From Candidatus Methanomethylophilaceae archaeon (GTDB lineage Archaea; Thermoplasmatota; Thermoplasmata; Methanomassiliicoccales; Methanomethylophilaceae), in NCBI GenBank assembly GCA_029982165.1, contig JARRCN010000004.1, forward strand, positions 8,018-72,017: DNA of 64,000 nt, read 5' to 3'. Positions 20,555-50,269 of this stretch are shown here, piece by piece (the first letter of the stretch is position 1; the number at the start of each line of letters is the position of its first letter). The translations under genes and the position numbers were made by a program. Below the pieces are notes generated by a model, which saw only the letters and a list, made by a program, of their open reading frames with translations, did not search any database and was not told where the DNA came from.

Positions 20555-23383
20555 TCAGTTGCCCAGCATCTCTTTTGTACGGGCTTCTATGAATTCAATA
20601 GGTAACGGATCAAAGGGCACACTATTTCCCAACGTAAGGAAATGCACCCAACACTTGACAGGTTTACCGAGTGAAGATGCAGCATGCGCATATACTGAAA
20701 GCTGAAGTTTATACTCCTCTAGATTATCTTTGGAGATGTCAGTTTTCCAATCATGGATCTCGACATGATCTTCGAACTCAGCGAAGATATCCATCCTACC
20801 CTCTATCATGTATTCACTGATAGGCAGTATGCAGGGGAGCTCGGTTGTTATCCTGCTGCCTTTGAGAGAGCTCAGGACCTCCCGTACCATATCAAGTTCA
20901 GGAAAGTCATTCCATGGCGCCATGCCGTGTGCTATTCGCTCGGCGTCGGCATGGATCTTGATACCATATTCTCGGCCGAGACCCTTCTCGATGGGTATAT
21001 GCCTAAGGATCCTATGTACACCCACCTTTCTGCGGACCATCTCCCTTTCAGGCAACTCAGGGCGCAATGTTTTTTTCTGCTCTTCTTCACAGACTAAGGA
21101 CACTGGTGTGACACTCACCTCATCTATTTTACTGTCACTAAGCGAGCTTATAAAATGTGATGGTTTATGGCAGATCATGATTATGTGTTGCATGGCTCGC
21201 GATGTGGAGACATACATGAGGCGCCGCTCTTCGTCGTAGTCCCTGTCAACAAGATTGTGAACTAGTGCATACCTCCAATCCCTGTAGACCTTTGGAAAAG
21301 GATCCCCGATCATCATTTGGGTTAATCTGACGCCATATAATGTATCGAAGCGAAGTATCCCTCTATCACCTGCACGGGATGGCATCTCCCCCTCGTTCAG
21401 ACCGGCAATGATCACCGCAGGATACTCCAGCCCTTTCGAGCTATGCATCGTCTGTATACGGATAGCATTACGGCTGGAGATCATATCTGCAGGGTAGGGG
21501 TCCATATTTGTGATGCTGTCTTCTATCAGCGTTACCATTTCCGAAAGGCTGGAGAGAGTACCACTATACAGTTGTACTAATTGTGATGTGACCGCTTGGG
21601 CCATGTCGCTCCCCATTTGGTAGCGAGCAAATATCGACGTCAAGAGTCGGTTGGTATCTTTTTGAATATCATTAAGATAAGACAGATGATCGCTAATAGC
21701 TTGGGGAAGAGGCGCATTTTTTTCTGAGAAGCGAAGTATTTCCTCATGGCTGTATCCCTCTAAATCCATAACCGCTACTCTACCCCTCTCGTCATGAGGG
21801 TTCATTAGCAAACGTAACCATGCCAGGGCCGTCTTTCCCTCACGGCTACGAAATATGTCTAGATCCCCATCCATACGCAGAGGTATCCTTAGCTCCCTCG
21901 CTCTGCGCTCGATCATATGCAGGAGGTTCCTTCTTCTACTAAGCACTGCCACATCTCCATATGAGAGGGGTCGGTCTTCATATTTTCCATCATCTATCTG
22001 TTCCCGTACGGTCAGCCCAGATTGCACCATATGCTGAGCGGCCCAGAGCACCGCATCTACCTCCGCCGCCTGATCTTCGGCTTTTAGGTATCTTATTATG
22101 CTCATCTCATCCGGTATCTCCTTAACGGAACGGAGTCTGATGAGTTTGCTGCGGATGTATTCCTTTTTCTGGGGATCCATACCGTCGTTAGAAGCGGGAA
22201 GGCAGAGGGTTCTTTCGGAAAGGCGGATGACTTTATCGGAACTTCGGTAGTTGTCCACAAGACTCAGGTGTTTTATATCCGTCACCTGAAATCGGACCCT
22301 TTCTCCCAACGAATCAACCAATATACGGATGCGTTGGTCAAATTCCAAGAGGTTTTCTATATCTGCATATCGGAATCCATAGATCCCTTGTTTCCAGTCA
22401 CCTACAACACACAGATTGGGTTCATTGAGCACTAAGAGAGCTATCAGAAACTGCAATTCATTTGTATCCTGGAACTCATCTATCATGAGATAACGGTAAG
22501 ATTCCTCTTCACGTATACGGGGGTCTTTATAAAGAGAAAGGAACGCAAAAAAGGCAACCATCGCGAATGTGAGTCTGTTCTCTGATATCGCATGGCGAAG
22601 ATATTCCGTGAAAACGTGATGGAGAAAACGAAAGAGCTCGTCCCTATCCCCATCAATAGCCTCTTTGATGAGATTCTCGTCTATAAGAGGGCCCTCCAGC
22701 AAATCATAGAAATTTGGTAGCAGCTCCTTTTCACTCCTCATCTTTTTTGCTAGGGAGACCCTGCCATCATGGTTCATCGCCTTAGCCTTTTCCATCATGC
22801 CAGCGGCATCACCGTAGAGCAGATCCATACCGTGCCTGAACCATCCGCCAGGAACGGGACAGGTACCCAATGTAAGCAGCCTAGAGATAATATCTCTAAC
22901 GTCATCAGGGCGGTCCCATAACAACTGTGCGACATCACCATAGTTCTCTCCATAGGATTCCATAAAACGAGTGTAGAACTCTCTAAAGTCCCGTCTCTCC
23001 ATGGCTTCCGATTCCATCATCCCCACATGTCTAGAGAGTCGCTCTTCAAGTCCCAGGTATTCGTGTATGCGGGAGGTGTCGCGCAGAAGGATGCTATTGC
23101 AAAACGCATCAAAGGTTGATGCCCGCACCGAATTGAGGTCCACGTCTTCTATATTTCGCATATATAGTTCGTTAACTACCCGATCTCTCATTTCCTCAGC
23201 GGCGTTCTTCGTGAAGGTAAGGAGAAATATCTCAGAGGGATCCACACCACTAAGGATGATGTTTATGAAACGATTCGTTATTGTGTATGTCTTCCCAGTA
23301 CCGGGCCCAGCATCGACCACTATGATGCCGTTGAGTGTCTCAGATATTTCCTTCTGTTTTTCGTTCAGGCATCGATCGGTCAT
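20555..23383 (-). CDS. UvrD/PcrA-type SF1 helicase fused to a C-terminal PD-(D/E)xK nuclease (AddA-like)
   Basis: Helicase motifs: DAGPGTGKT (I), LMIDEFQDTNELQ (II), VGDWKQGIYGFRYAD (III), VDNYRSS (IV), TMHSSKGLEYPAVII (V), RRLMYVSTSRA (VI). Nuclease motif: GRMDIFAEF...VEIHDWKTD. Confidence 0.85.
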   Translation of the reverse strand: MTDRCLNEKQKEISETLNGIIVVDAGPGTGKTYTITNRFINIILSGVDPSEIFLLTFTKNAAEEMRDRVVNELYMRNIEDVDLNSVRASTFDAFCNSILLRDTSRIHEYLGLEERLSRHVGMMESEAMERRDFREFYTRFMESYGENYGDVAQLLWDRPDDVRDIISRLLTLGTCPVPGGWFRHGMDLLYGDAAGMMEKAKAMNHDGRVSLAKKMRSEKELLPNFYDLLEGPLIDENLIKEAIDGDRDELFRFLHHVFTEYLRHAISENRLTFAMVAFFAFLSLYKDPRIREEESYRYLMIDEFQDTNELQFLIALLVLNEPNLCVVGDWKQGIYGFRYADIENLLEFDQRIRILVDSLGERVRFQVTDIKHLSLVDNYRSSDKVIRLSERTLCLPASNDGMDPQKKEYIRSKLIRLRSVKEIPDEMSIIRYLKAEDQAAEVDAVLWAAQHMVQSGLTVREQIDDGKYEDRPLSYGDVAVLSRRRNLLHMIERRARELRIPLRMDGDLDIFRSREGKTALAWLRLLMNPHDERGRVAVMDLEGYSHEEILRFSEKNAPLPQAISDHLSYLNDIQKDTNRLLTSIFARYQMGSDMAQAVTSQLVQLYSGTLSSLSEMVTLIEDSITNMDPYPADMISSRNAIRIQTMHSSKGLEYPAVIIAGLNEGEMPSRAGDRGILRFDTLYGVRLTQMMIGDPFPKVYRDWRYALVHNLVDRDYDEERRLMYVSTSRAMQHIIMICHKPSHFISSLSDSKIDEVSVTPVSLVCEEEQKKTLRPELPEREMVRRKVGVHRILRHIPIEKGLGREYGIKIHADAERIAHGMAPWNDFPELDMVREVLSSLKGSRITTELPCILPISEYMIEGRMDIFAEFEDHVEIHDWKTDISKDNLEEYKLQLSVYAHAASSLGKPVKCWVHFLTLGNSVPFDPLPIEFIEARTKEMLGN

Positions 23384-26004
23384 TGGTACGCCTCCAAGCA
23401 GATGTCCAGATATTCGCAGTCCTTACATACACTTGGACTGCGTGGTTTTGCCTGGAATCCCTCACCGCTGTATTTCTCAAGATCATTAAGGGCTTCTTTG
23501 ACTACTAAGAGAAAACTATCCAACACATCAGGCATTATCGCTAAGGCATTCTTGTATGGTATAATGTCCTCACTCAACCCTTCAACGACTCTATTGAACA
23601 ACCTCTCAATAGGTTTCTTCTTTCTTGTCTTTCCGGCAAACATAACACTGAACTCTTCGTAGGCCTTTTCCTTCTCCATATCTCCCTTATCTGGAACTTC
23701 CCAGACCCTTATCTTGCGAAATGCCTCAAGAACAGTTTCTGATCCCACTTCATCTATCAGATCGATTTCGGATTTATTCATAGCATTTAGATATTCGTTT
23801 ATCCACGGATTTTTTGCGGTTACCAGGCCAGCCCGGTCGGTGCCTGTATATATAACGCTGACGCGATGTTTTTCTATATCGTATTCTGTATAGTCCGAAT
23901 CGACTGGTTTCATGTAATTATAATCCATTTGCAGACGTCTGCGCGGATCGCCTTCTGACCGTAAGAGGGCAAGGTACACCAATGGCTGGACGTCTATCTC
24001 GTCACCATCCCATACGCCCTTTATTCTTCTGATGGTTTCGTTCACAGACCGTTTCTTAGCGGTCTTATGGTCCACAATCAAATTCTCAGAAACTCGAAGG
24101 TCTATCCTGCCGTTCAGTCTCAGTTCTTCATTACGTGTGTCGAATTCCGTGTTGCCTATAGTAGGTTCAAGATCAAACGCTCTGAACAGTCTGTTATAAC
24201 CTTGCCTTCTGATCTGTAGGGGTTCGACATCGTAAGACTTCAGAAAATACTCGCAATTAATCATTAATTGATCCATCTTTGCTAGGACGCTGTTAAGGGC
24301 TTTGCGGCTGTTAAGGAATGAGAGGTCATTGCGGAACACCTCTAGACACTCCCTCCTGGTCTCAGGCCCTGACCGTGATGGATAGTGAACGAGAAGCTCT
24401 GCGTATTCGTGTGCCATATTCCCGATGGTCTTTATTATGTGCTCTGGTTCAGGTGTGAGAGATGAGAACTGATACATTTTGGGGCAGAGGAGCAGTTTGT
24501 TAAGCTTACTTTGGGATATGGTGTTTAGAGTTTGCGCACTCCCCCTTCTGCGCGGAAAGAGAGATTCAGACGGGTCATCTAACCATCTGCACTCTCTCAC
24601 TTCCTCTGCCACGTCTTCAAAGTCCAGCACTGGCCGGGCTTCACTGCGATTGAAATAGATACAAGGTAGCACTTTACGCCCTTTGGATACTTTGCTTATC
24701 ATATAGAGGCGTTCCTCTCCCTGCTGGAGCAATATTTCGAAACGGGTAACTTCCTTTCCCAAAACCTCCTCAGAATCAATGTGGCGGCGGCGGGGGATGT
24801 GTTTCGCCCACTCCCTTCCTATACCAACATGGAAAACTATAGGCCGGTCTACATATGTGGATGACTTACAATCCACCAAAACGACGCCCTCGTCCTCTTC
24901 CTCGCTCATGATATCATCGCTAAGATTATCTATCGCGTAAGCGAGAGTGTCAAGCGTTCTCGGTGTCAGAGGGCTTTCGGTCATACCCAATTGTTTGAGC
25001 AGTTCGACAGCATATACCATCTCCTCATCACCCAGCAATGACATGCATGCCTGGAGCAAGGTCCCTGAAGATATCTTATGAATGTATTCCAACAGGGAAG
25101 TCAGTTCCTTGTCATTACCGCTTTCTGCTCTTCGAATAAAAAAGTGATGGTCGTATTTTGCATCGAATGATGTCGGACTTATCTCTAGATCCTTTAACTG
25201 CACACTCTTGAGCATTCTTTTCAAATCGGACATTTTAGCGGTTTCTATACCCAAACAGAAATCAAGGAACTTGAGAAGGCTTCTTATTCCCGGCATGTCG
25301 CGCATGAAGTGCTGCGATGTGAAAGATATGCATTTTTGATAAAGCGCAGACTTTACGGCCTCAAGTATTGAGCCCTCCGTATCAAGGACCACAGCTGTAG
25401 AATTGAGATTTTTTTGGTCTATAAGGTCTGCTATATGGCGGCCAATGAGCCTTTCATTTCCCATATCCATCATGAGCGGTATCTGGTATATTCCATCGTG
25501 ATAAGGCAACACCTCTCGAAAGGAACCAGGTGGCGGCAGAACATGTTTATCCAGCTCATCAAAGAGATCAAGGGCTACCACAACAACATCGATTCCTTCG
25601 AAAAAATCCAATGGGAAACGTTCCATAGCCCTCTCTACACTGGGAATTCTGCGATAGGCTTTCCAAACAAGTTCCGAATCACGTGTGTCAAGATATTTTT
25701 CAACTTGAGATGTCTCGCGGCGTATTTCTTTTATGTTCTCTATCTCACCATGAACGTATGGAATCTCTAATCCTGTGGCTTCGGAGACCTCCGCAACTAT
25801 CTTAGCCTCTGGCCACACCTCTTCCCCGAGCACTTCCAGGGCCATTCGTGAGGCCAATTCTCTGGGCGTGACGGCCAGTTTACCAATCATAGGACGATCG
25901 GCGAGACGGTTCAGAGCAGTAGCCAGAGGGGCTTGGTTGGTTATGACGAGGTCAGCCTCACCAATCTCAACAAATATCTCTTCGATGGACTTCGCTTTTT
26001 TCAT
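23380..26004 (-). CDS. AddB-like inactivated-helicase scaffold with a Cas4/AddB-type Fe-S PD-(D/E)xK nuclease
   Basis: There is no Walker A. The C-terminal nuclease core is GRIDLRV...LIVDHKTAKK, bracketed by a distal Cys (LLCPKMYQF) and C-x2-C-x5-C (CKDCEYLDIC). 4-nt overlap with the AddA-like gene. Confidence 0.75.
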   Translation of the reverse strand: MKKAKSIEEIFVEIGEADLVITNQAPLATALNRLADRPMIGKLAVTPRELASRMALEVLGEEVWPEAKIVAEVSEATGLEIPYVHGEIENIKEIRRETSQVEKYLDTRDSELVWKAYRRIPSVERAMERFPLDFFEGIDVVVVALDLFDELDKHVLPPPGSFREVLPYHDGIYQIPLMMDMGNERLIGRHIADLIDQKNLNSTAVVLDTEGSILEAVKSALYQKCISFTSQHFMRDMPGIRSLLKFLDFCLGIETAKMSDLKRMLKSVQLKDLEISPTSFDAKYDHHFFIRRAESGNDKELTSLLEYIHKISSGTLLQACMSLLGDEEMVYAVELLKQLGMTESPLTPRTLDTLAYAIDNLSDDIMSEEEDEGVVLVDCKSSTYVDRPIVFHVGIGREWAKHIPRRRHIDSEEVLGKEVTRFEILLQQGEERLYMISKVSKGRKVLPCIYFNRSEARPVLDFEDVAEEVRECRWLDDPSESLFPRRRGSAQTLNTISQSKLNKLLLCPKMYQFSSLTPEPEHIIKTIGNMAHEYAELLVHYPSRSGPETRRECLEVFRNDLSFLNSRKALNSVLAKMDQLMINCEYFLKSYDVEPLQIRRQGYNRLFRAFDLEPTIGNTEFDTRNEELRLNGRIDLRVSENLIVDHKTAKKRSVNETIRRIKGVWDGDEIDVQPLVYLALLRSEGDPRRRLQMDYNYMKPVDSDYTEYDIEKHRVSVIYTGTDRAGLVTAKNPWINEYLNAMNKSEIDLIDEVGSETVLEAFRKIRVWEVPDKGDMEKEKAYEEFSVMFAGKTRKKKPIERLFNRVVEGLSEDIIPYKNALAIMPDVLDSFLLVVKEALNDLEKYSGEGFQAKPRSPSVCKDCEYLDICLEAYQ

Positions 26005-26121
26005 ATTTCTTTATTCTCCAAACGAATGACAAATATCATTGCCTTCTATGAAAACAGTTTCGCATGGTACGGGAAGCGGTTGAGGGAAAAATTATAAATC
26101 AGATATTTTGCAGTTGTTTCT

Positions 26122-26685
26122 TTGATGGAAGATAAGATTCACGTGGTCGCTTTGTCTAAAACCGGGGAGAACGGTTTTCCTGTGGATAGTGTGGTAGAAG
26201 TGGCTATATTTGAAGTGGACCGCGAAAAACGTACAATGGAATCCGTATACGACGCAATAATAAAACATGAAACATCATCTTGGCCAGATGAAGTTAAGGA
26301 ACACGTGACGGAGAAATACGGCATACCATTGGAAAAGATTGAGTCAGGACGGGACGAAGACGAGGTAATAGCTGAAGTAAGGGCCATTCTTGATGATAAG
26401 TTCGTCACCGGTTTTGACGTAAAGACAGATTTTAAAGGGTACCTCGTGAACGAACCATGGGATCTGGGGCAGAAAATGGAAGTGTGCTCTTCAATCTCGT
26501 CCCGTAGCTCTATGATATGTCGTTTTCCGATATCCAGAAGGGGGGATCCGGAATTGGTAAGGGACACTTATCGCAAGATCTTCCCTAGTGATCCGGCAGG
26601 GATAGGTGATGGCAAAGGCGCATATGAGGATGCCGCCCGTGCTTCTGCCATTTTGATAGAGTTGCATGAACGTGGCCTCTATTAG
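26122..26685 (+). CDS. DEDD-exonuclease-like paralog with a degenerate active site
   Basis: Collinear with the 17318..17980 product: IHVVALSKTGENGFPVDSVVEVAIFEV vs VFVLDTETTGLDGWPKDHVVDVAVCRV, and AYEDAARASAILIELHERGLY vs HRALEDALMASYILIELVRRQLY. The ExoI D-x-E is replaced by A-x-S/K. Confidence 0.6.
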   Translation: MMEDKIHVVALSKTGENGFPVDSVVEVAIFEVDREKRTMESVYDAIIKHETSSWPDEVKEHVTEKYGIPLEKIESGRDEDEVIAEVRAILDDKFVTGFDVKTDFKGYLVNEPWDLGQKMEVCSSISSRSSMICRFPISRRGDPELVRDTYRKIFPSDPAGIGDGKGAYEDAARASAILIELHERGLY

Positions 26686-26773: not shown

Positions 26774-27136
26774 ATGGCAAAGAGACCATTGCTTATAACA
26801 GTCCTCGGTGCACTCTATGCGCTGATGGGTATTTTGATAGTTTTGGCCGCGATAGCGTTGTTCTTCGTAGACCTAAGTACGATCGACTCCGCTCTGGCGG
26901 ATGCGGGGGCGTTGCTCGGAGGTGGAGTACTGGTGTTTGGGTTGGTGTATCTGATAATAGGGTACGGTTTCCTGAATGGCTGGACCATCATGTGGTATCT
27001 AGGTATCATATTCTCAGCAATTGGGGCTTTGGGCTCCTTGCTTACCATTCCAACTGGGTTAGTTAGCCTCGTGATCAACGTTGTGATACTTTACTATCTG
27101 TTCCGTCCGCAGGTCAAAAGCTTTTTCAAGGTATGA
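26774..27136 (+). CDS. Small integral membrane protein (about 4 TM)
   Basis: Hydrophobicity pattern only. It has the same size and topology as the next gene. Confidence 0.5.
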   Translation: MAKRPLLITVLGALYALMGILIVLAAIALFFVDLSTIDSALADAGALLGGGVLVFGLVYLIIGYGFLNGWTIMWYLGIIFSAIGALGSLLTIPTGLVSLVINVVILYYLFRPQVKSFFKV

Positions 27137-27198: not shown

Positions 27199-27567
27199 GT
27201 GAAAAAGAGACCGACCCTAGTAAGCCTTACCGCTGTGATATTATTTCTTATAGGGATCGTGAGCATCCTTAGGGGATTTGTTGTGACAGGCTATAGCGAG
27301 ACCGCGCTAAGACTAGGCTCAACAACTTTGAGCATTCTCACTCTAATGATCGGTTTGGTATTGGTATTTTGTGCGGTGCTTTCACTCGCATCTGCTGTAT
27401 GGACGTGGTATATCGTTATAAGCGCATCAGTGATTGCAATGTTGGGATCGGTATGGTTCTTTCCCTATGGTATGGTACAGATCATAATGCTGATAGCAGT
27501 TATGAATTTTCTTCTCTTGCCTCAATATAAAAGATATCACGGGATCAAGATCTCATCAGAACATTGA
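27199..27567 (+). CDS. Small integral membrane protein (about 4 TM), apparent paralog or analog of the preceding gene
   Basis: Hydrophobicity pattern only. Confidence 0.45.
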   Translation: MKKRPTLVSLTAVILFLIGIVSILRGFVVTGYSETALRLGSTTLSILTLMIGLVLVFCAVLSLASAVWTWYIVISASVIAMLGSVWFFPYGMVQIIMLIAVMNFLLLPQYKRYHGIKISSEH

Positions 27568-28455: not shown

Positions 28456-29838
28456 TTGTCTCCATCCGATGTTATGAACGAGGTTCAGAAAAAGGGGGCC
28501 AGTATCAATGACCCTATAACCATTAGTGATTTTAACAGAATCACCGCGTCGATCATAAAGTCTGAGCCCCGTCTGCAAGATGTATGGCTCATTGGTGAGA
28601 TATCCAACCTTAAGCTCTCAAATGCTGGTCATTATTACTTCACACTCAAGGACGCTGAGAGTGAAATCAGCTGCACGATGTTCCGCGGGGCTGCCGCCAG
28701 GCTAAAAGAACCCCTGAAGGATAAAAGCAAGGTCCTAGCCTTCGGTTCCGCTAATATATACCATCCACAAGGAAGATATCAGTTTAACGTTATCGATATC
28801 AGGGATCAGGGCATCGGCGACCTGCATGCCCTATTTCAGGAACTTAAGGAGAAGCTGGAAAGGGAGGGGCTCTTTGATAGCTCTCATAAAAAACCATTGC
28901 CGCGTTATCCCGATAAGATCGGAGTGGTCACATCACCAACTGGATCTGTCATACGAGACATCATTAATGTGGCTAGAAGGAGGTATCCGTGTGAGATCAT
29001 CCTCTCGCCTGCACAGGTTCAGGGAAAAGAGGCAGCGGCGTCCATTGTGAAAGCTATTTCCCTCTTAGAGAGATTTGGAGTGGACTTGATAATCGTAGGC
29101 AGAGGTGGTGGCTCCTTAGAGGATCTCTGGCCCTTCAACGAGGAGCTCGTTGCCAGAGCGATATATGCGTGTCCCATACCTGTGATATCCGCAGTCGGTC
29201 ATGAGACTGATTTTTCTATTTCCGATTTTGTTGCAGACCGTAGGGCGGAGACCCCCTCAGCCGCTGCTGAGATGGCCTTGCCGGATCTTAATAAGGAAAG
29301 GCAGAATCTCAAAAATATTTTTGAAAGAGGTGAGAAAGCTCTGAAAAACAAATTGCTACACATACAGAATCTATTCCGCTCGCTTGATGTCAGGCTGAGA
29401 CCGGAGAGAGCTTTAGAAAGGGTGGAGCAAAGTATGCAGGGTTTGGATGTTTTTGAAGATAAGATGAGAAACTCTTTGGAAAGGAAACTGGAGAAACATC
29501 TATCCACATTAAATAAGTGGGATTACACGCTATCCCCCCGCTCCATCATTGAGAAGATTAACTCTCTCTACAGGCTGTGTAAAGACGTTTCCCACCGTGC
29601 CGATATGCTCATGATGATGGTTTTAGACACCGCTGGAGCACGGATAGCGTCCTTGGAGGGGCGCATGGAAGCTTTGAACCCATATCGTGTATTGGATCGA
29701 GGCTACGCTATTGTAATGGACACCGAAGGAAGGCCAATCACCAGTGTTTCGAGGTTGAATACGGGAGACATTATATGGACGCGATTACATGACGGTTCGT
29801 TGCTTTCGGAGATAAAGGAAAAAGAGGAAATCATATGA
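28456..29838 (+). CDS. xseA: Exodeoxyribonuclease VII large subunit
   Basis: OB-fold N-terminus (WLIGEISNLK...HYYFTLKD...ISCTMF). Catalytic region: IGVVTSPTGSVIRDI, VQGKEAA, IIVGRGGGSLEDLWPFNEE, ISAVGHETDFSISDFVADRRAETPSAAAE. Confidence 0.9.
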   Translation: MSPSDVMNEVQKKGASINDPITISDFNRITASIIKSEPRLQDVWLIGEISNLKLSNAGHYYFTLKDAESEISCTMFRGAAARLKEPLKDKSKVLAFGSANIYHPQGRYQFNVIDIRDQGIGDLHALFQELKEKLEREGLFDSSHKKPLPRYPDKIGVVTSPTGSVIRDIINVARRRYPCEIILSPAQVQGKEAAASIVKAISLLERFGVDLIIVGRGGGSLEDLWPFNEELVARAIYACPIPVISAVGHETDFSISDFVADRRAETPSAAAEMALPDLNKERQNLKNIFERGEKALKNKLLHIQNLFRSLDVRLRPERALERVEQSMQGLDVFEDKMRNSLERKLEKHLSTLNKWDYTLSPRSIIEKINSLYRLCKDVSHRADMLMMMVLDTAGARIASLEGRMEALNPYRVLDRGYAIVMDTEGRPITSVSRLNTGDIIWTRLHDGSLLSEIKEKEEII

Positions 29839-30065
29839 ACGAGGAGAGCGAGGAAGGATTGAGTTTTGAAAAAGCTATGTCCAAATTGGAAGAGTTGGTA
29901 ACGAAGCTTGACGAAGGGGACCTGGGGCTAGAGGAAAGCCTCTCCATCTACGAAGAAGCCGTAAAGCTGCGCGACTTTTGCCGTAAGAGACTAGAGGAGT
30001 ATGAACGCAGGGTAAGGAAGCTTGTAGATAAGGACGGAGAGTTGACACTCGAGAATTTCGATTAA
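29835..30065 (+). CDS. xseB: Exodeoxyribonuclease VII small subunit
   Basis: 76 aa, LSFEKAMSKLEELVTKLDEGDLGLEESLSIYEEAVKL, with 4-nt overlap with xseA. Confidence 0.85.
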   Translation: MNEESEEGLSFEKAMSKLEELVTKLDEGDLGLEESLSIYEEAVKLRDFCRKRLEEYERRVRKLVDKDGELTLENFD

Positions 30066-30066
30066 G

Positions 30067-30921
30067 TTATTGCCATATTTCTATGTCTATTGAGCGGCCC
30101 CACTCCATCATGTCTTTATAGAGTTTCGTTGTTTTGAAATCGTCTGCAGTGTATGCAAGCCTCAGGATGCCGGCCAGCATCCCCCTTCCTAGTGTGCGGG
30201 CGTTGTAAAGTCCTATTGTCTCATGGAGGGCGATGAGGAGGATGGCTACCATATCATGTCCCCTGCATATGACCCAAGGATCGTGTCCTTTGCTGATTTC
30301 TGCTTTTATTTCCCTTACCAGCGTTTTTGGGTTAGCGCAATGGTGATCTGAGGAGATGCATAACGATTCCACCATCCTTTGGATATCCGTGCATAGTCTC
30401 ACAGGGTCAACGAAACTGTGGTGGTCTATCTCTTTGAATGAGAGATTATAACCGTTACGCAGGGATATAAACATCAGTGTTCCTAAGGGAATGGTGGCAT
30501 TCAGCAGTGCTTCTCTGACCGTCATGCCTGTCCTTTTCTCAAAAAGGGCTATTTCATCTCTGTCACCGTATTCCCATAAGACAGCATCAAGAGCTGATGA
30601 GCGTATCAACAAGGTCTCCAGATCATGACAGTCAGTCATAAAGAGATTCTCCTCCACTTCTTTCCCCAGAAGAAGGTCATAATCCTGGTCTATAATGCCA
30701 GTTGTGAGGGAGTCGCCCCTCACTTCTCTCATCTCTTTTACCGCTATACGCACATTGTCTTTAGAATGGGCTATAACCATTTGGCATTCGGCAGGATTAC
30801 TGAATTTGCCGTAGAGTCGAAAATCAGTGACTCCTTCTACCACCACAAAGAGCCCTTTGAACTTAGACCTACGCATTCCCATTTCATTGGCTATTTCGAA
30901 TGATTGTATGTAGCGACGCAA
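30067..30921 (-). CDS. DUF4435-type Toprim (OLD-like) nuclease domain protein, AriB-like
   Basis: Toprim Glu in FVVVEGVTDFRLYGKF and a DxD-type motif in GIIDQDYDLLLG. It follows the ATPase gene with a 1-nt gap. Confidence 0.65.
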   Translation of the reverse strand: MRRYIQSFEIANEMGMRRSKFKGLFVVVEGVTDFRLYGKFSNPAECQMVIAHSKDNVRIAVKEMREVRGDSLTTGIIDQDYDLLLGKEVEENLFMTDCHDLETLLIRSSALDAVLWEYGDRDEIALFEKRTGMTVREALLNATIPLGTLMFISLRNGYNLSFKEIDHHSFVDPVRLCTDIQRMVESLCISSDHHCANPKTLVREIKAEISKGHDPWVICRGHDMVAILLIALHETIGLYNARTLGRGMLAGILRLAYTADDFKTTKLYKDMMEWGRSIDIEIWQ

Positions 30922-30922
30922 A

Positions 30923-31954
30923 TCAGATCACCAATTCCACAGTGAGATCCCATTTGTCATGTACTACCTGTGGGGAGTGGGTGGCCATTAGAACCTGGAT
31001 GTCACGTGCCTCGCATATCTCCATAAAAAGTGATGCCAGACGTTGTTGCCAAGTTATATGCATGGAAATCTCCGGCTCGTCTATAATCACCAGGCTTCCA
31101 GGACTGGCTACAAAGACCATCGTGTAGAGCATCAAGAGTAAATGCCTCTCTCCAGATGACAATCTTTCCAGTGGAATGTTCTTGCCATCATCGAAGAAGA
31201 CAGAGAGACCCTCCTCTGCGTTGATAATCAGCTTCTTGCGGAAGAGCATGGGGTTTACAATATCTTGAAGAGTGACTATTTCCTCCGCAAGAGGATAGAG
31301 CACGTCCGCCACACAGATAAGTTTGTGAAGTGTCAGAAGCTTTTTTTCGTCCCAGACCATAGCATCGTTCTCAACCAAATCTCTCAGGATCTCTTCCAGA
31401 ACGGATGGTAAGATTCCGGCATTCTGGATCATTGCCATCTTAGCCTTCAGTTCTGCGAGATGACTTTTAGGGTCCTTTCTTATCTCTTCAGGAATCTTTT
31501 CACACTCTGTCCATCTTTCAAGTGCAAAGGCCTGCTGTTTTTTTATTCTCTCCGACACATCCTCCGCATAGATCTTTAATGTGGATGAGAAATAGCCACC
31601 CTCCTCCTCCTTAAAAAGTCTCTGCGGGCCCAGATACACCACGTTTGTAATTGACTTGACCTCAGTTTTGTCCACTTGAATAATATCTCCGGCATCCAGA
31701 AGTGTGACCTCTAGTGTCTCTTTTTTCAGGAATATCAATCTTCTACCCTCCTCGAAACCGAATTCTAGGCGTTCGAAGGGTATATGATTCAGCTCATCCC
31801 AGCAGCCAGTAAAGGCTAAGAATATCATTTTCATCATGGTACTTTTGCCCAGACCGTTGGGTGAATGAATGATGGTAAGTCCTTCTTCCTTGAGCTCTAT
31901 GGTATGGTTGAACGTGTCGTATAAAGAATTCACTTTTATCCAGCGGAGTTTCAT
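30923..31954 (-). CDS. ABC/SMC-like ATPase (AAA_15/AAA_21 type), AriA-like but compact
   Basis: Walker A HSPNGLGKSTMMK, ABC signature LSSGERHLLLML, Walker B/D-loop LVIIDEPEISMH and H-loop LMATHSPQV. There is a roughly 200-aa helical insert between Walker A and the signature. Confidence 0.75.
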   Translation of the reverse strand: MKLRWIKVNSLYDTFNHTIELKEEGLTIIHSPNGLGKSTMMKMIFLAFTGCWDELNHIPFERLEFGFEEGRRLIFLKKETLEVTLLDAGDIIQVDKTEVKSITNVVYLGPQRLFKEEEGGYFSSTLKIYAEDVSERIKKQQAFALERWTECEKIPEEIRKDPKSHLAELKAKMAMIQNAGILPSVLEEILRDLVENDAMVWDEKKLLTLHKLICVADVLYPLAEEIVTLQDIVNPMLFRKKLIINAEEGLSVFFDDGKNIPLERLSSGERHLLLMLYTMVFVASPGSLVIIDEPEISMHITWQQRLASLFMEICEARDIQVLMATHSPQVVHDKWDLTVELVI

Positions 31955-31995
31955 CTTATCTCCTTCCTGTTTTACATTCTAACATTAAAAGGTTT

Positions 31996-32883
31996 ATGGA
32001 TGCTAATAGAAAGAGGATAAGAACAAATATCCGTGTCCTCTTCACTGCGAACATGGAGGATCTCGACAGTAGATTCCGTCGTGTGAGCTCTCTTATTGCC
32101 TCTAATGACATGGATTCTGCCTATTTGGAGGTGGAGAGGATCGCAAGTATCTCACAAGGCGATCCTTTTGTTCTCGTGAAATGTGCCGCACTCCTTCTCA
32201 CAATGAACCGCAAGGCCCAATCGAGGGAGATAGCCGCTATGGCTTTGGAAACCGTCTCTGAGGATGAGGGGGACCGTTTGCAGTTGGCGATAGCATTACG
32301 CAACCTAAGAATGACTAAGGAGTCACTTTATCTTATAGAGGGCCTTCAAAAGACTGATGCGGTAGCACTGGAGAGGGCTAAAACTCTTTTGGCCATGGAT
32401 CTTTTCGACGAAGCCCTAAAGATATTGGAAAGCTTGGAGGGACGCGAAGCCTTACTGTTGAAGAGTGAATGTTTATCGTTAAGTGGTGAGCATGAAAAAG
32501 CCATATTCTTAGCCAGCAAGCTTACAGAGGGTTCTGGAAGTTATGAAGAAATGTCCCTCTTTGTGGCCAATCTAATCCGTGCCGGGAAGGTCAAAGAGGC
32601 CATAAAAGTCGCTGATAGGTTTTTGAAGAGTAGAAAGAACGCTGACAGCTTAGCCTTAAAGTCCTATGTTATGCGCATCAATGGCCGCCTTAAGGCCTCA
32701 ATGAACTTTGCTAATCAGGCCCTATCGGCCGACAAACGACACATAGGTGCGATGTGGAATATGGCTATCTGCCTTATCGAAAAGGGGAGAATAAATGAGG
32801 CCAAAGTGTTGGCGGGAGCCATAAATGAGGTCGAACCCGGGAGCCATTTGGCCTTGGAGATCCTTGATCTCTGTAATGCCTAG
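31996..32883 (+). CDS. TPR-repeat protein
   Basis: Repeated about 34-aa helical units with the A/L/G spacing typical of TPR, e.g. ALKILESLEG...KAIFLASKL and EAIKVADRFLK. Confidence 0.6.
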   Translation: MDANRKRIRTNIRVLFTANMEDLDSRFRRVSSLIASNDMDSAYLEVERIASISQGDPFVLVKCAALLLTMNRKAQSREIAAMALETVSEDEGDRLQLAIALRNLRMTKESLYLIEGLQKTDAVALERAKTLLAMDLFDEALKILESLEGREALLLKSECLSLSGEHEKAIFLASKLTEGSGSYEEMSLFVANLIRAGKVKEAIKVADRFLKSRKNADSLALKSYVMRINGRLKASMNFANQALSADKRHIGAMWNMAICLIEKGRINEAKVLAGAINEVEPGSHLALEILDLCNA

Positions 32884-49954: not shown

Positions 49955-50269
49955 TGCTAGGCTTGACCGGGATGCTCGGCGTATCCTTGTATACCGAAAT
50001 CGTCGATATGCGGAGGTGACAGCGGAGGACGACGCGGCTCTAACCTGGAGGCCTGGTATCACAACAATGAGACCCTGTCCACCGGGGTAGGTGTGAGTGG
50101 CTGTGTTCGATCGGAGGATCGTTACCACCACTCTAATTGCGGGGACTGGGCCAGGCCCTGACGGGAGCAGCCTTACCGCAAACTACCGACGCTCGGAGGG
50201 TAGCGGGGTTGAGAAGTGATACCAGATACCTCTTGGCCAAGAGCGCGGCAACCTCCGTGGCCTAGCACC
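49955..50269 (+). ncRNA. Archaeal signal recognition particle RNA (7S/SRP RNA)
   Basis: About 315 nt. The 5' tgctaggc pairs with the 3' gcctagca. The domain IV-like conserved segment is GGGCCAGGCCCUGACGGGAGCAGCC, and the sequence is GC-rich and highly self-complementary (ggtgagtggctgtg... / ...cgctcggagggtagcgggg). Only a spurious antisense ORF overlaps it. Confidence 0.85.

Follow-up and report, generated by a model that had tools for sequence, protein, structure and literature searches.

The anti-phage system PARIS is understood from a single, satellite-borne representative, that of Escherichia coli B185 (P4-satellite hotspot; PDB entries 8UX9 and 8V45-8V49), in which the gene of a Rad50/SMC-like ATPase (AriA) precedes the gene of a DUF4435 Toprim nuclease (AriB), and which has been described mechanistically by Burman et al. 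2024 (PMC11464382), by Deep et al. 2024 (PMC10802264) and in PMC12409363. Rousset et al. 2022 recognized the system by an ATPase matching AAA_15 (at least 32 bits) or AAA_21 (at least 27 bits) adjacent to a DUF4435 protein (at least 27 bits), and already counted ariAB in archaeal genomes (PMC9122126). ATPases of the same ABC superfamily (AAA_15/21) occur in OLD nucleases and in the Gabija protein GajA, where the ATPase and a Toprim effector (Toprim_Old) form a single polypeptide, as well as in Septu (the PtuA ATPase accompanied by the HNH nuclease PtuB) and in retrons. In this work, we analyzed an adjacent ATPase/nuclease gene pair encoded within a 64,000-nucleotide (nt) stretch of contig JARRCN010000004.1 of Candidatus Methanomethylophilaceae archaeon (assembly GCA_029982165.1, positions 8,018 to 72,017); this whole stretch is hereafter called the window. 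An earlier note on this DNA had proposed that the pair is PARIS-like or a split OLD nuclease, inserted between the xseAB and trkAH genes. Its remark that archaeal PARIS is unstudied agrees with our literature search, which found no work devoted to archaeal PARIS or to this clade, apart from the archaeal counts just mentioned.

The assignment of the pair to the PARIS (AriA/AriB) family is well supported. In Pfam searches, the ATPase scored 74.6 bits with AAA_21 (1.8e-20) and 61.9 bits with AAA_15 (1.1e-16), while DUF4435 (41.0 bits, 2.3e-10) was the only match of the nuclease; with both genes on the same strand and 1 nt apart, all these values lie above the thresholds of the rule given above. 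The best PADLOC models were AriA for the ATPase (PDLC04164, 5e-26; PtuA profiles also match its C-lobe) and AriB for the nuclease (2.7e-17), and a search of NCBIfam gave no equivalog for either protein. The profile and PADLOC searches suggested in the earlier note therefore all returned matches (AAA_15/AAA_21, DUF4435, AriA, and AriB), and its argument from gene order and domain content was borne out by the PADLOC scores and by the AriA/AriB-specific structural matches presented below. Standard defence finders would label the pair PARIS; what is new is the compact architecture of AriA in a large alignable clade and the fact that a PARIS-type module has become vertically fixed throughout a methanogen family. 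The usual PARIS context, i.e., a mobile-element hotspot or a defence island with patchy occurrence, which is typical rather than strictly defining, was not found at this locus.

In a phmmer search against the PDB, E. coli AriA was the best match of the ATPase (2e-18, over residues 6-79 and 251-336), and the OLD structure 6p74 was matched weakly by sequence (3e-4). AlphaFold models of both proteins were built on clade alignments, and that of the ATPase reached a predicted local distance difference test (pLDDT) score of 91.9. The top 16 matches of this model in the PDB, searched with Foldseek, were AriA chains only (E-value of 6e-21, template-modelling (TM) scores of 0.61-0.66), followed by Rad50 (1.5e-12) and then by PtuA and retron ATPases (about 1e-11). 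The model consists of an N-lobe (residues 1-124), a four-helix helical domain (about 125-233), corresponding to the helical insert expected of AriA, and a C-lobe (234-343). The full ABC/SMC-type motif set that had been noticed earlier is present in the translation: Walker A GLGKST (G34-T39, with K37), the signature L265-E269 within LSSGERHLLL, Walker B I290-E293 within IIDEPEISMH (D292/E293), and the H-loop H326 (ATHSP); R112 was marked in addition. K39 and D392/E393 of the E. coli protein correspond to K37 and D292/E293. The invariance of catalytic motifs was assessed over 23-35 homologues, and K37, D292/E293, LSSGE 265-269, and H326 did not vary among the 32 homologues of the ATPase.

The model of the nuclease (pLDDT 95.0) gave two significant Foldseek matches in the PDB, both of them AriB (8ux9_A, 5e-6, and 8v46_D, 3e-5; probability 1.0, TM 0.49-0.54), and its full-length fold has no other significant counterpart there, in agreement with the Toprim fold predicted earlier. 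An N-terminal helix (residues 7-17) is followed by the Toprim core (about 24-105) and by a C-terminal helical domain with an invariant R220-G221-H222-D223 motif. The Toprim glutamate and the DxD-like arrangement noted previously were identified as E29 (VVEGVTD), which corresponds to the catalytic E26 of E. coli AriB, and as D78/D80 (IIDQDYD); the remaining acidic residues are D33, D82, D97, D100, and E102. In the homologue alignments no variation is seen at E29, D78, D80, and D100, and at least 90% of the sequences have E102. The N-terminal helix, which in E. coli AriB is the element docking on AriA (PMC10802264), is conserved as well (A11, N12, S15, and M16).

Comparison with the E. coli system revealed the same two-gene order, the same ATPase motifs and Toprim acidic residues, a match of both predicted folds and a shared N-terminal helix of the nuclease, at an identity of about 20% (AriA) and 15% (AriB). 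The E. coli genes lie in a mobile-element hotspot, whereas the window pair is archaeal and vertically inherited at a fixed chromosomal locus. Using tblastn, PARIS-like pairs were also found in the P2-like Yersinia phage vB_YenM_31.17 (423+292 aa, between cI and the integrase gene) and in the E. coli IncF plasmid pDS26_129 (445+289 aa, beside RepB and an integrase). These pairs share the gene order, and their nucleases are homologous to that of the window over the full length; hhalign of the nuclease profile gave 99.8% (E-value of 1.7e-29, full length) with the phage protein and 98.4% (7e-15) with the plasmid protein, and the VEG.xD, DxDxD, TDxHDxE, and C.GHD motifs of both are aligned in register. 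Their ATPases (423-445 aa), in turn, carry the canonical inserts, and their context is that of classical mobile-element hotspots, unlike that of the window pair.

As regards the other known systems, the structural matches of the ATPase to OLD, GajA, Septu, and retron ATPases (1e-10 to 1e-12) are far from that to AriA (6e-21). The OLD family and Gabija were ruled out by the two separate genes, by DUF4435 as the only effector domain and by the lack of an adjacent helicase (Gabija and class 2 OLD systems have a UvrD-like one), and Septu by the partner of the ATPase, a DUF4435/Toprim protein and not an HNH nuclease. The split OLD nuclease of the earlier note is thus correct at the superfamily level only, since no Toprim_Old profile matched and the fold is specifically that of AriB.

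With 343 aa, as opposed to 464 aa in E. coli, the ATPase is about 100-120 aa (about a quarter) shorter than AriA, and the impression that it is short for this family proved right. Four segments present in the long forms are missing from the short clade: residue 79 is followed by a gap of 39-59 aa, residue 97 by one of 12-33 aa, residue 117 by one of 7-15 aa, and residue 148 by one of 14 aa; the four-helix helical domain is kept in the AlphaFold model. Basic loops of the central pore (113-124) and of the radial pore (161-174) of AriA were implicated in the sensing of Ocr by Burman et al. (PMC11464382), and Deep et al. placed Ocr on the coiled-coil interface (PMC10802264), a region which is retained in the compact ATPase. 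For placement of the loops, residues 6-434 of E. coli AriA were recovered from the profile alignment. In the HMMER alignment the central-pore loop falls in a missing insert and the radial-pore loop on a retained Q/R segment; in the MAFFT alignment it is the radial-pore loop that falls in the missing insert, and the central-pore loop is aligned to the hairpin 85-96, which is acidic here (LLDAGDIIQVDK). Either way at least one basic loop of E. coli AriA has no counterpart in the compact ATPase, but the two programs map the loops differently, and the idea that both pore loops are missing was rejected on account of this disagreement.

Compact pairs were also found outside the archaeal clade, i.e., L175 (341+283 aa), L176 (358+287 aa), and L087 of Latescibacterota (283+288 aa). 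They have the sizes and domains of the window pair, 29-36% identity to it, and unrelated, non-conserved contexts lacking xse, TPR (tetratricopeptide-repeat) or trk neighbours, which indicates that the compact architecture is an existing natural subtype of PARIS. Furthermore, L065, a Methanomassiliicoccales metagenome-assembled genome (MAG), encodes at a different locus a nuclease 44% identical to that of the window, paired with an AriA of canonical length (440 aa). This pair may represent the long form from which the others descend, or it may have been acquired separately, and it suggests that the short AriA arose by deletion from an L065-like ancestor combining a long AriA with a related nuclease. 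The L065 pair (L065:6674-10305) directly adjoins a convergent gene of a second SMC_N/AAA_15-type ATPase (483 aa).

Several relatives carry altered ATPase genes. In one high-GC subclade (L022, L027, L032, L044, L047, L076, and L060; e.g., L022:7955-8030) the stop codon of the ATPase gene is lost through a change of ATG-CGT-GA to ATG-CGC-GA within the overlap of the two genes, which is synonymous in the nuclease gene, and the reading frame extends for 44-185 codons rich in Arg, Pro, and Gly across the nuclease gene, in the other frame. This tail may be tolerated junk or, more speculatively, a substrate for +1 frameshifting to an AriA-AriB fusion. The ATPase gene of L170 (9647-10666) is intact apart from a lone in-frame TAG at codon 56 (…KYM*EIPFERL…; L170:10502-10504, minus strand), at which the gene caller split it into pieces of 54 and 280 aa; in an order decoding UAG as pyrrolysine, this codon could reflect read-through or pyrrolysine insertion and not a pseudogene. 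In L075 (5768-6556), a goat-rumen Methanomethylophilaceae MAG, the whole helical domain (about residues 113-228 of the window ATPase) is lost in frame, which leaves a 262-aa head only; the adjoining nuclease gene is intact.

The homologues of the two proteins group in a tight clade, in which the ATPases measure about 345 aa and the nucleases about 285 aa and whose named sources are all Methanomassiliicoccales. Homologue loci at 64%, 46%, 43%, and 42% identity share one gene order: TrkA-TrkH, TPR on the opposite strand, ATPase-DUF4435, convergent XseB-XseA and, further along, a PD-(D/E)XK/UvrD (AddAB-like) pair. To survey this arrangement, one genome per GTDB species was scanned, the best 80 of 102 matching stretches were retrieved, and the neighbours of the window pair were located in them with tblastn. 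This gave 79 informative loci (L014 was cut off), nearly all from Methanomassiliicoccales and mostly from Methanomethylophilaceae, and xseB and/or xseA lies directly downstream of the pair, in convergent orientation, in all of them except L065 and L087 (77/79). As these loci had been found through the pair itself, loci anchored on XseA were added as an independent sample, and the nuclease gene adjoins xseB in five out of five Methanomassiliicoccales-type loci (L089, L168, L169, L170, and L171). A scan of metagenome contigs for XseA served as a negative control and as the source of L089, the other XseA loci being homologues absent from the pair-anchored set; among the matches listed, 77 of 80 were not of Methanomassiliicoccales and the three relevant contigs ended at xseB. 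The pair is missing next to those 77 other XseA genes (mostly bacterial) and next to xseAB of Methanolobus.

The divergence of the pair is congruent with that of its neighbours and as slow as that of housekeeping genes. For the 47 loci with all six genes complete, the mean pairwise identity was 0.44 for the ATPase and 0.47 for the nuclease, compared with 0.50 for XseA, 0.45 for TrkA, 0.38 for TrkH, and 0.36 for the TPR protein, and the correlation (rho) of the pairwise-identity matrices was 0.76 for ATPase-nuclease, 0.71 for ATPase-XseA, 0.66 for nuclease-XseA, and 0.44 for TrkA-TrkH. Orthologues are 37-65% identical, and synonymous sites are saturated at this distance. Most likely, the pair entered the lineage of the Methanomethylophilaceae-type Methanomassiliicoccales before these radiated and has since been inherited vertically at one locus throughout this family of gut and sediment methanogens.

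The features of the locus are collected in Table 1; the open reading frames (ORFs), motifs and 1-nt gap reported earlier were all found again in the translations and in the sequence. By Pfam, the block is flanked by XseA/XseB on one side and by TrkH/TrkA, then hisD, on the other. In the window a sole nucleotide (30922) separates the TGA stop of the ATPase gene from the TTG start of the nuclease gene, and in most relatives the two genes overlap by 4-11 nt (typically by the 8-nt sequence ATGCGTGA, the one in which the stop codon mentioned above was lost), where translational coupling is predicted from this arrangement. At the other end, the xseB stop, as read directly, is 1 nt from that of the DUF4435 gene (window 30065-30067), and in most relatives the 3' ends of the nuclease gene and xseB overlap by 8-29 nt; convergent transcripts necessarily overlap there, so that the pair and xseB might affect each other by antisense. 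Gene packing is extreme, and the 3' ends of the TPR gene and trkH also overlap, by 4 nt (window 32880-32883). The spacer between the divergent ATPase and TPR genes, put at about 40 bp in the earlier note, presumably holds the promoters of both and has A/T-rich, TATA-like stretches; an AGGAGA Shine-Dalgarno-like element lies 5-10 nt 5' of the ATPase ATG.

Table 1. Features of the compact ariAB-like locus and their coordinates in the window.
Feature	Position	Strand	Details and basis
AriA-like ABC/SMC-type ATPase (compact form)	30923..31954	-	343 aa, ATG start; Pfam, PADLOC, phmmer, AlphaFold/Foldseek
AriB-like DUF4435/Toprim nuclease (predicted)	30067..30921	-	284 aa, TTG start; Pfam, PADLOC, AlphaFold/Foldseek, hhalign
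Divergent intergenic region, ATPase/TPR gene	31955..31995	.	41 nt; read from sequence alone
TPR-repeat protein, frequent divergent neighbour	31996..32883	+	295 aa; Pfam TPR_19/ANAPC3; system membership unsupported
xseB (exonuclease VII small subunit), convergent neighbour	29835..30065	+	Pfam Exonuc_VII_S; context, not a shown component

We consider it fairly probable that the pair is a compact, vertically fixed member of PARIS, whose ATPase would hold a Toprim tRNase sequestered until a trigger prompts its release. This reading builds on the homology, fold, intact motifs, gene coupling, fixed position, and conservation described above; from the E. coli system, which serves as the mechanistic template, it borrows by homology the formation of a complex, the release upon a trigger, an RNA as the target, and an antiviral purpose. 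The two genes would be co-transcribed and translationally coupled, and the ATPase would form head-to-head dimers around ATP. By its N-terminal helix the Toprim protein would dock at the head-head interface, where it would be kept monomeric and inactive until a trigger acting on the ATPase led, in an ATP-dependent manner, to its release. The trigger is probably not a DNA mimic of the Ocr type, because in the alignments the basic loops of E. coli AriA seem to be either absent here or replaced by an acidic stretch. The freed nuclease would then dimerise, and its two-metal Toprim site (E29, D78/D80, D100/E102) would nick tRNA or another structured RNA, so that translation and growth would stop.

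Four points weigh against this interpretation. Long vertical retention with conservation at the level of housekeeping genes is atypical of abortive-infection systems, which as a rule occur patchily and on mobile elements. Of canonical AriA, the ATPase lacks the roughly 100-120 aa specified above, and it may no longer form the 6:3 propeller (AriA6:AriB3) or sense anything viral. The ATPase changes of the stop-loss subclade, L075, and L170 sit uneasily with a finely tuned sensor. Moreover, E. coli AriB was not reached by sequence with phmmer, the clade profile, the mobile-element bridges or a broadened profile, the searches toward solved AriB returning weak Toprim matches and spurious de-novo TIM barrels, and the residues of its dimer interface (F137/E285, K144/R289) and tRNA contacts (K60/K64) could therefore not be placed on the window protein.

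The alternative that survives best is a domesticated derivative of PARIS, kept for a function of the host, whose ATPase answers an endogenous cue rather than a viral protein; we regard it as rather unlikely. The function might be a cleavage of tRNA or rRNA triggered by stress or starvation and serving growth control, or an RNase M5-like processing. The pair behaves like core genes: about 100 species-level genomes carry it at one fixed locus, and it is as conserved as XseA and TrkA, even though in small, syntenic genomes a fixed position alone is weak evidence of function. Its helical (sensor) domain is about as variable as the N-lobe and no more so (0.39 vs 0.40), and trigger-contacting regions are poorly conserved in canonical PARIS (PMC11464382). 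The loss of the canonical inserts, the acidic retained hairpin and the absence of relatives of the pair from the viral contigs of IMG/VR also agree with domestication, as does the resemblance of the AriB active site to that of RNase M5 (PMC12409363), a Toprim ribonuclease maturing 5S rRNA. The two-metal Toprim site is common to RNase M5 and the window nuclease, and the nuclease profile matched RNase M5 and 1t6t weakly (E-values of 0.06-0.26); however, RNase M5 is a 116-aa monomer without an ATPase partner or a C-terminal helical domain, and no significant full-length match was obtained. On the other hand, the positive evidence includes no host substrate or cue, the compact pairs in unrelated contexts (L087, L175, and L176) are what would be expected of a mobile defence module, and the occasional degradation of the ATPase (L075, L170, and the stop-loss clade) suggests that it is non-essential. 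A more specific version, which we offer as doubtful, is that an ancestor of the Methanomethylophilaceae captured a PARIS module which lost part of its surface for sensing viral triggers and is now a core pair serving the host, e.g., as an ATP-gated Toprim RNase adjusting tRNA or rRNA under stress. If true, this would clearly exemplify the domestication of an immune system into archaeal housekeeping.

An accessory role in DNA repair, in which an OLD- or RecF/RecR-like ATPase-Toprim machine would act together with exonuclease VII and the nearby AddAB-like helicase-nuclease, appears improbable. It is prompted by the near-universal and extremely tight junction with xseB-xseA, by the syntenic bacterial-type neighbourhood (a PDDEXK_1 AddB-like protein, a UvrD-type helicase, and an RNase T-like exonuclease), by the ATPase distances, which track XseA best (rho 0.71), and by the resemblance of the ATPase to Rad50 heads. 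Yet the pair is convergent to xseB and hence forms a separate operon, and the overlapping 3' ends of the nuclease gene and xseB leave no neutral site, which may by itself explain the unbroken junction and their lasting adjacency. The 77 listed XseA loci outside Methanomassiliicoccales and the xseAB of Methanolobus lack the pair, and relatives of the pair elsewhere are not found beside xse genes. Structurally, AriA was matched nine orders of magnitude better than Rad50, AriB was the only significant match of the nuclease, and no RecF, RecR or OLD chain ranked near AriA/AriB. A RecF/RecR-type mediator, considered because of the repair neighbours, was rejected, as neither RecF nor RecR is among the significant fold or sequence matches, and no zinc-finger motif was found in the nuclease (the RecR partner is a Toprim protein with a zinc finger).

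It is highly doubtful, too, that the pair is part of a three-component system with the divergent TPR protein as its sensor or regulator, as the earlier note had speculated. The TPR gene is the immediate divergent neighbour of the ATPase gene in most loci and shares a short intergenic region with it, but in many lineages (L029, L031, L034, L040, L058, L061, L064, L066, L067, L069, L074, and L168) the two are split by unrelated inserted genes (GT87 glycosyltransferase, AAA_14/DUF4143 ATPases, and a DUF998 protein). At four loci whose flanks are complete (L030, L035, L039, and L055), another gene takes the place of the TPR gene as the upstream neighbour, and the TPR gene is absent from all non-syntenic relatives (L065, L087, and L173-L176), including the canonical and bacterial ones. 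Furthermore, it is the least conserved gene of the block, its matrix correlation with the pair (0.58) is no better than that of TrkA/TrkH, and the PADLOC search with the TPR protein gave no match of note to a defence profile.

It is scarcely credible that the pair came in recently, as a mobile element or defence island placed between two operons of housekeeping genes (the island reading of the earlier note): PARIS is generally expected to travel on mobile elements (PMC9122126, PMC11464382) and the flanks are indeed housekeeping genes, but the pair occupies the same position across the family at 37-65% protein identity, with a divergence congruent with its neighbours and no island-like variability (which, by the note's own reasoning, refutes that reading), its GC content (0.42-0.46, flanks 0.45-0.49) shows no anomaly, no direct or inverted repeats flank it, no integrase or transposase was found at the locus, there is practically no intergenic space on either side, and the 64-kb window contains no tRNA gene that could be an attachment site.

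A naturally minimised AriA with an intact AriB in about 100 archaeal species provides a ready alignment for recognizing the dispensable parts of the sensor. It is also an unusually clean case of a "defence" module acting as a core gene, which bears on how long immune systems persist vertically and on whether some of them are repurposed. Should the pair be an ordinary PARIS, it exemplifies that a defence call based on domains does not make a locus an island, and that evidence of co-occurrence is needed before neighbours like the TPR gene are counted as parts of a system. Methanomethylophilaceae are methanogens abundant in the gut, and a growth-arresting nuclease conserved in them could matter for their viruses and for their control.

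Beside xseAB lies a repair neighbourhood of bacterial type which is syntenic across the family (window 23380-26685; e.g., L001:12663-16855). It encodes an 874-aa, AddB-like PD-(D/E)XK protein, whose C-terminal part bears a Cys cluster (…CKDCEYLDIC…), as well as a small exonuclease of the RNase T-like kind (26122..26685), and in related loci a UvrD-type helicase-nuclease is encoded alongside. Two adjacent ORFs of 120 and 122 aa (window 26774-27136 and 27199-27567) have the look of multi-pass membrane proteins and similar N-termini (MAKRPLL… and MKKRPTL…), and may be tandem paralogues; similar small ORFs are present at the same position in related loci. The window also contains the archaeal signal-recognition-particle RNA (49955-50267; Rfam RF01857, 187 bits), which confirms its archaeal origin together with XseA, a protein 100% identical to one encoded in a Candidatus Methanomethylophilaceae archaeon MAG.

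It is also worth noting that the full archaeal HisD-Trk-TPR-pair-Xse-AddAB block was found in seven GTDB representatives labelled as bacteria (L022, L027, L032, L044, L058, L064, and L069). Their labels are Lachnospiraceae, Bacteroides ovatus, Prevotella hominis, Dialister hominis, Anaerovoracaceae, Bacteroides salyersiae, and Eggerthellaceae ('cleanbin' assemblies), and the contigs in question are almost certainly mis-binned contigs of Methanomethylophilaceae.

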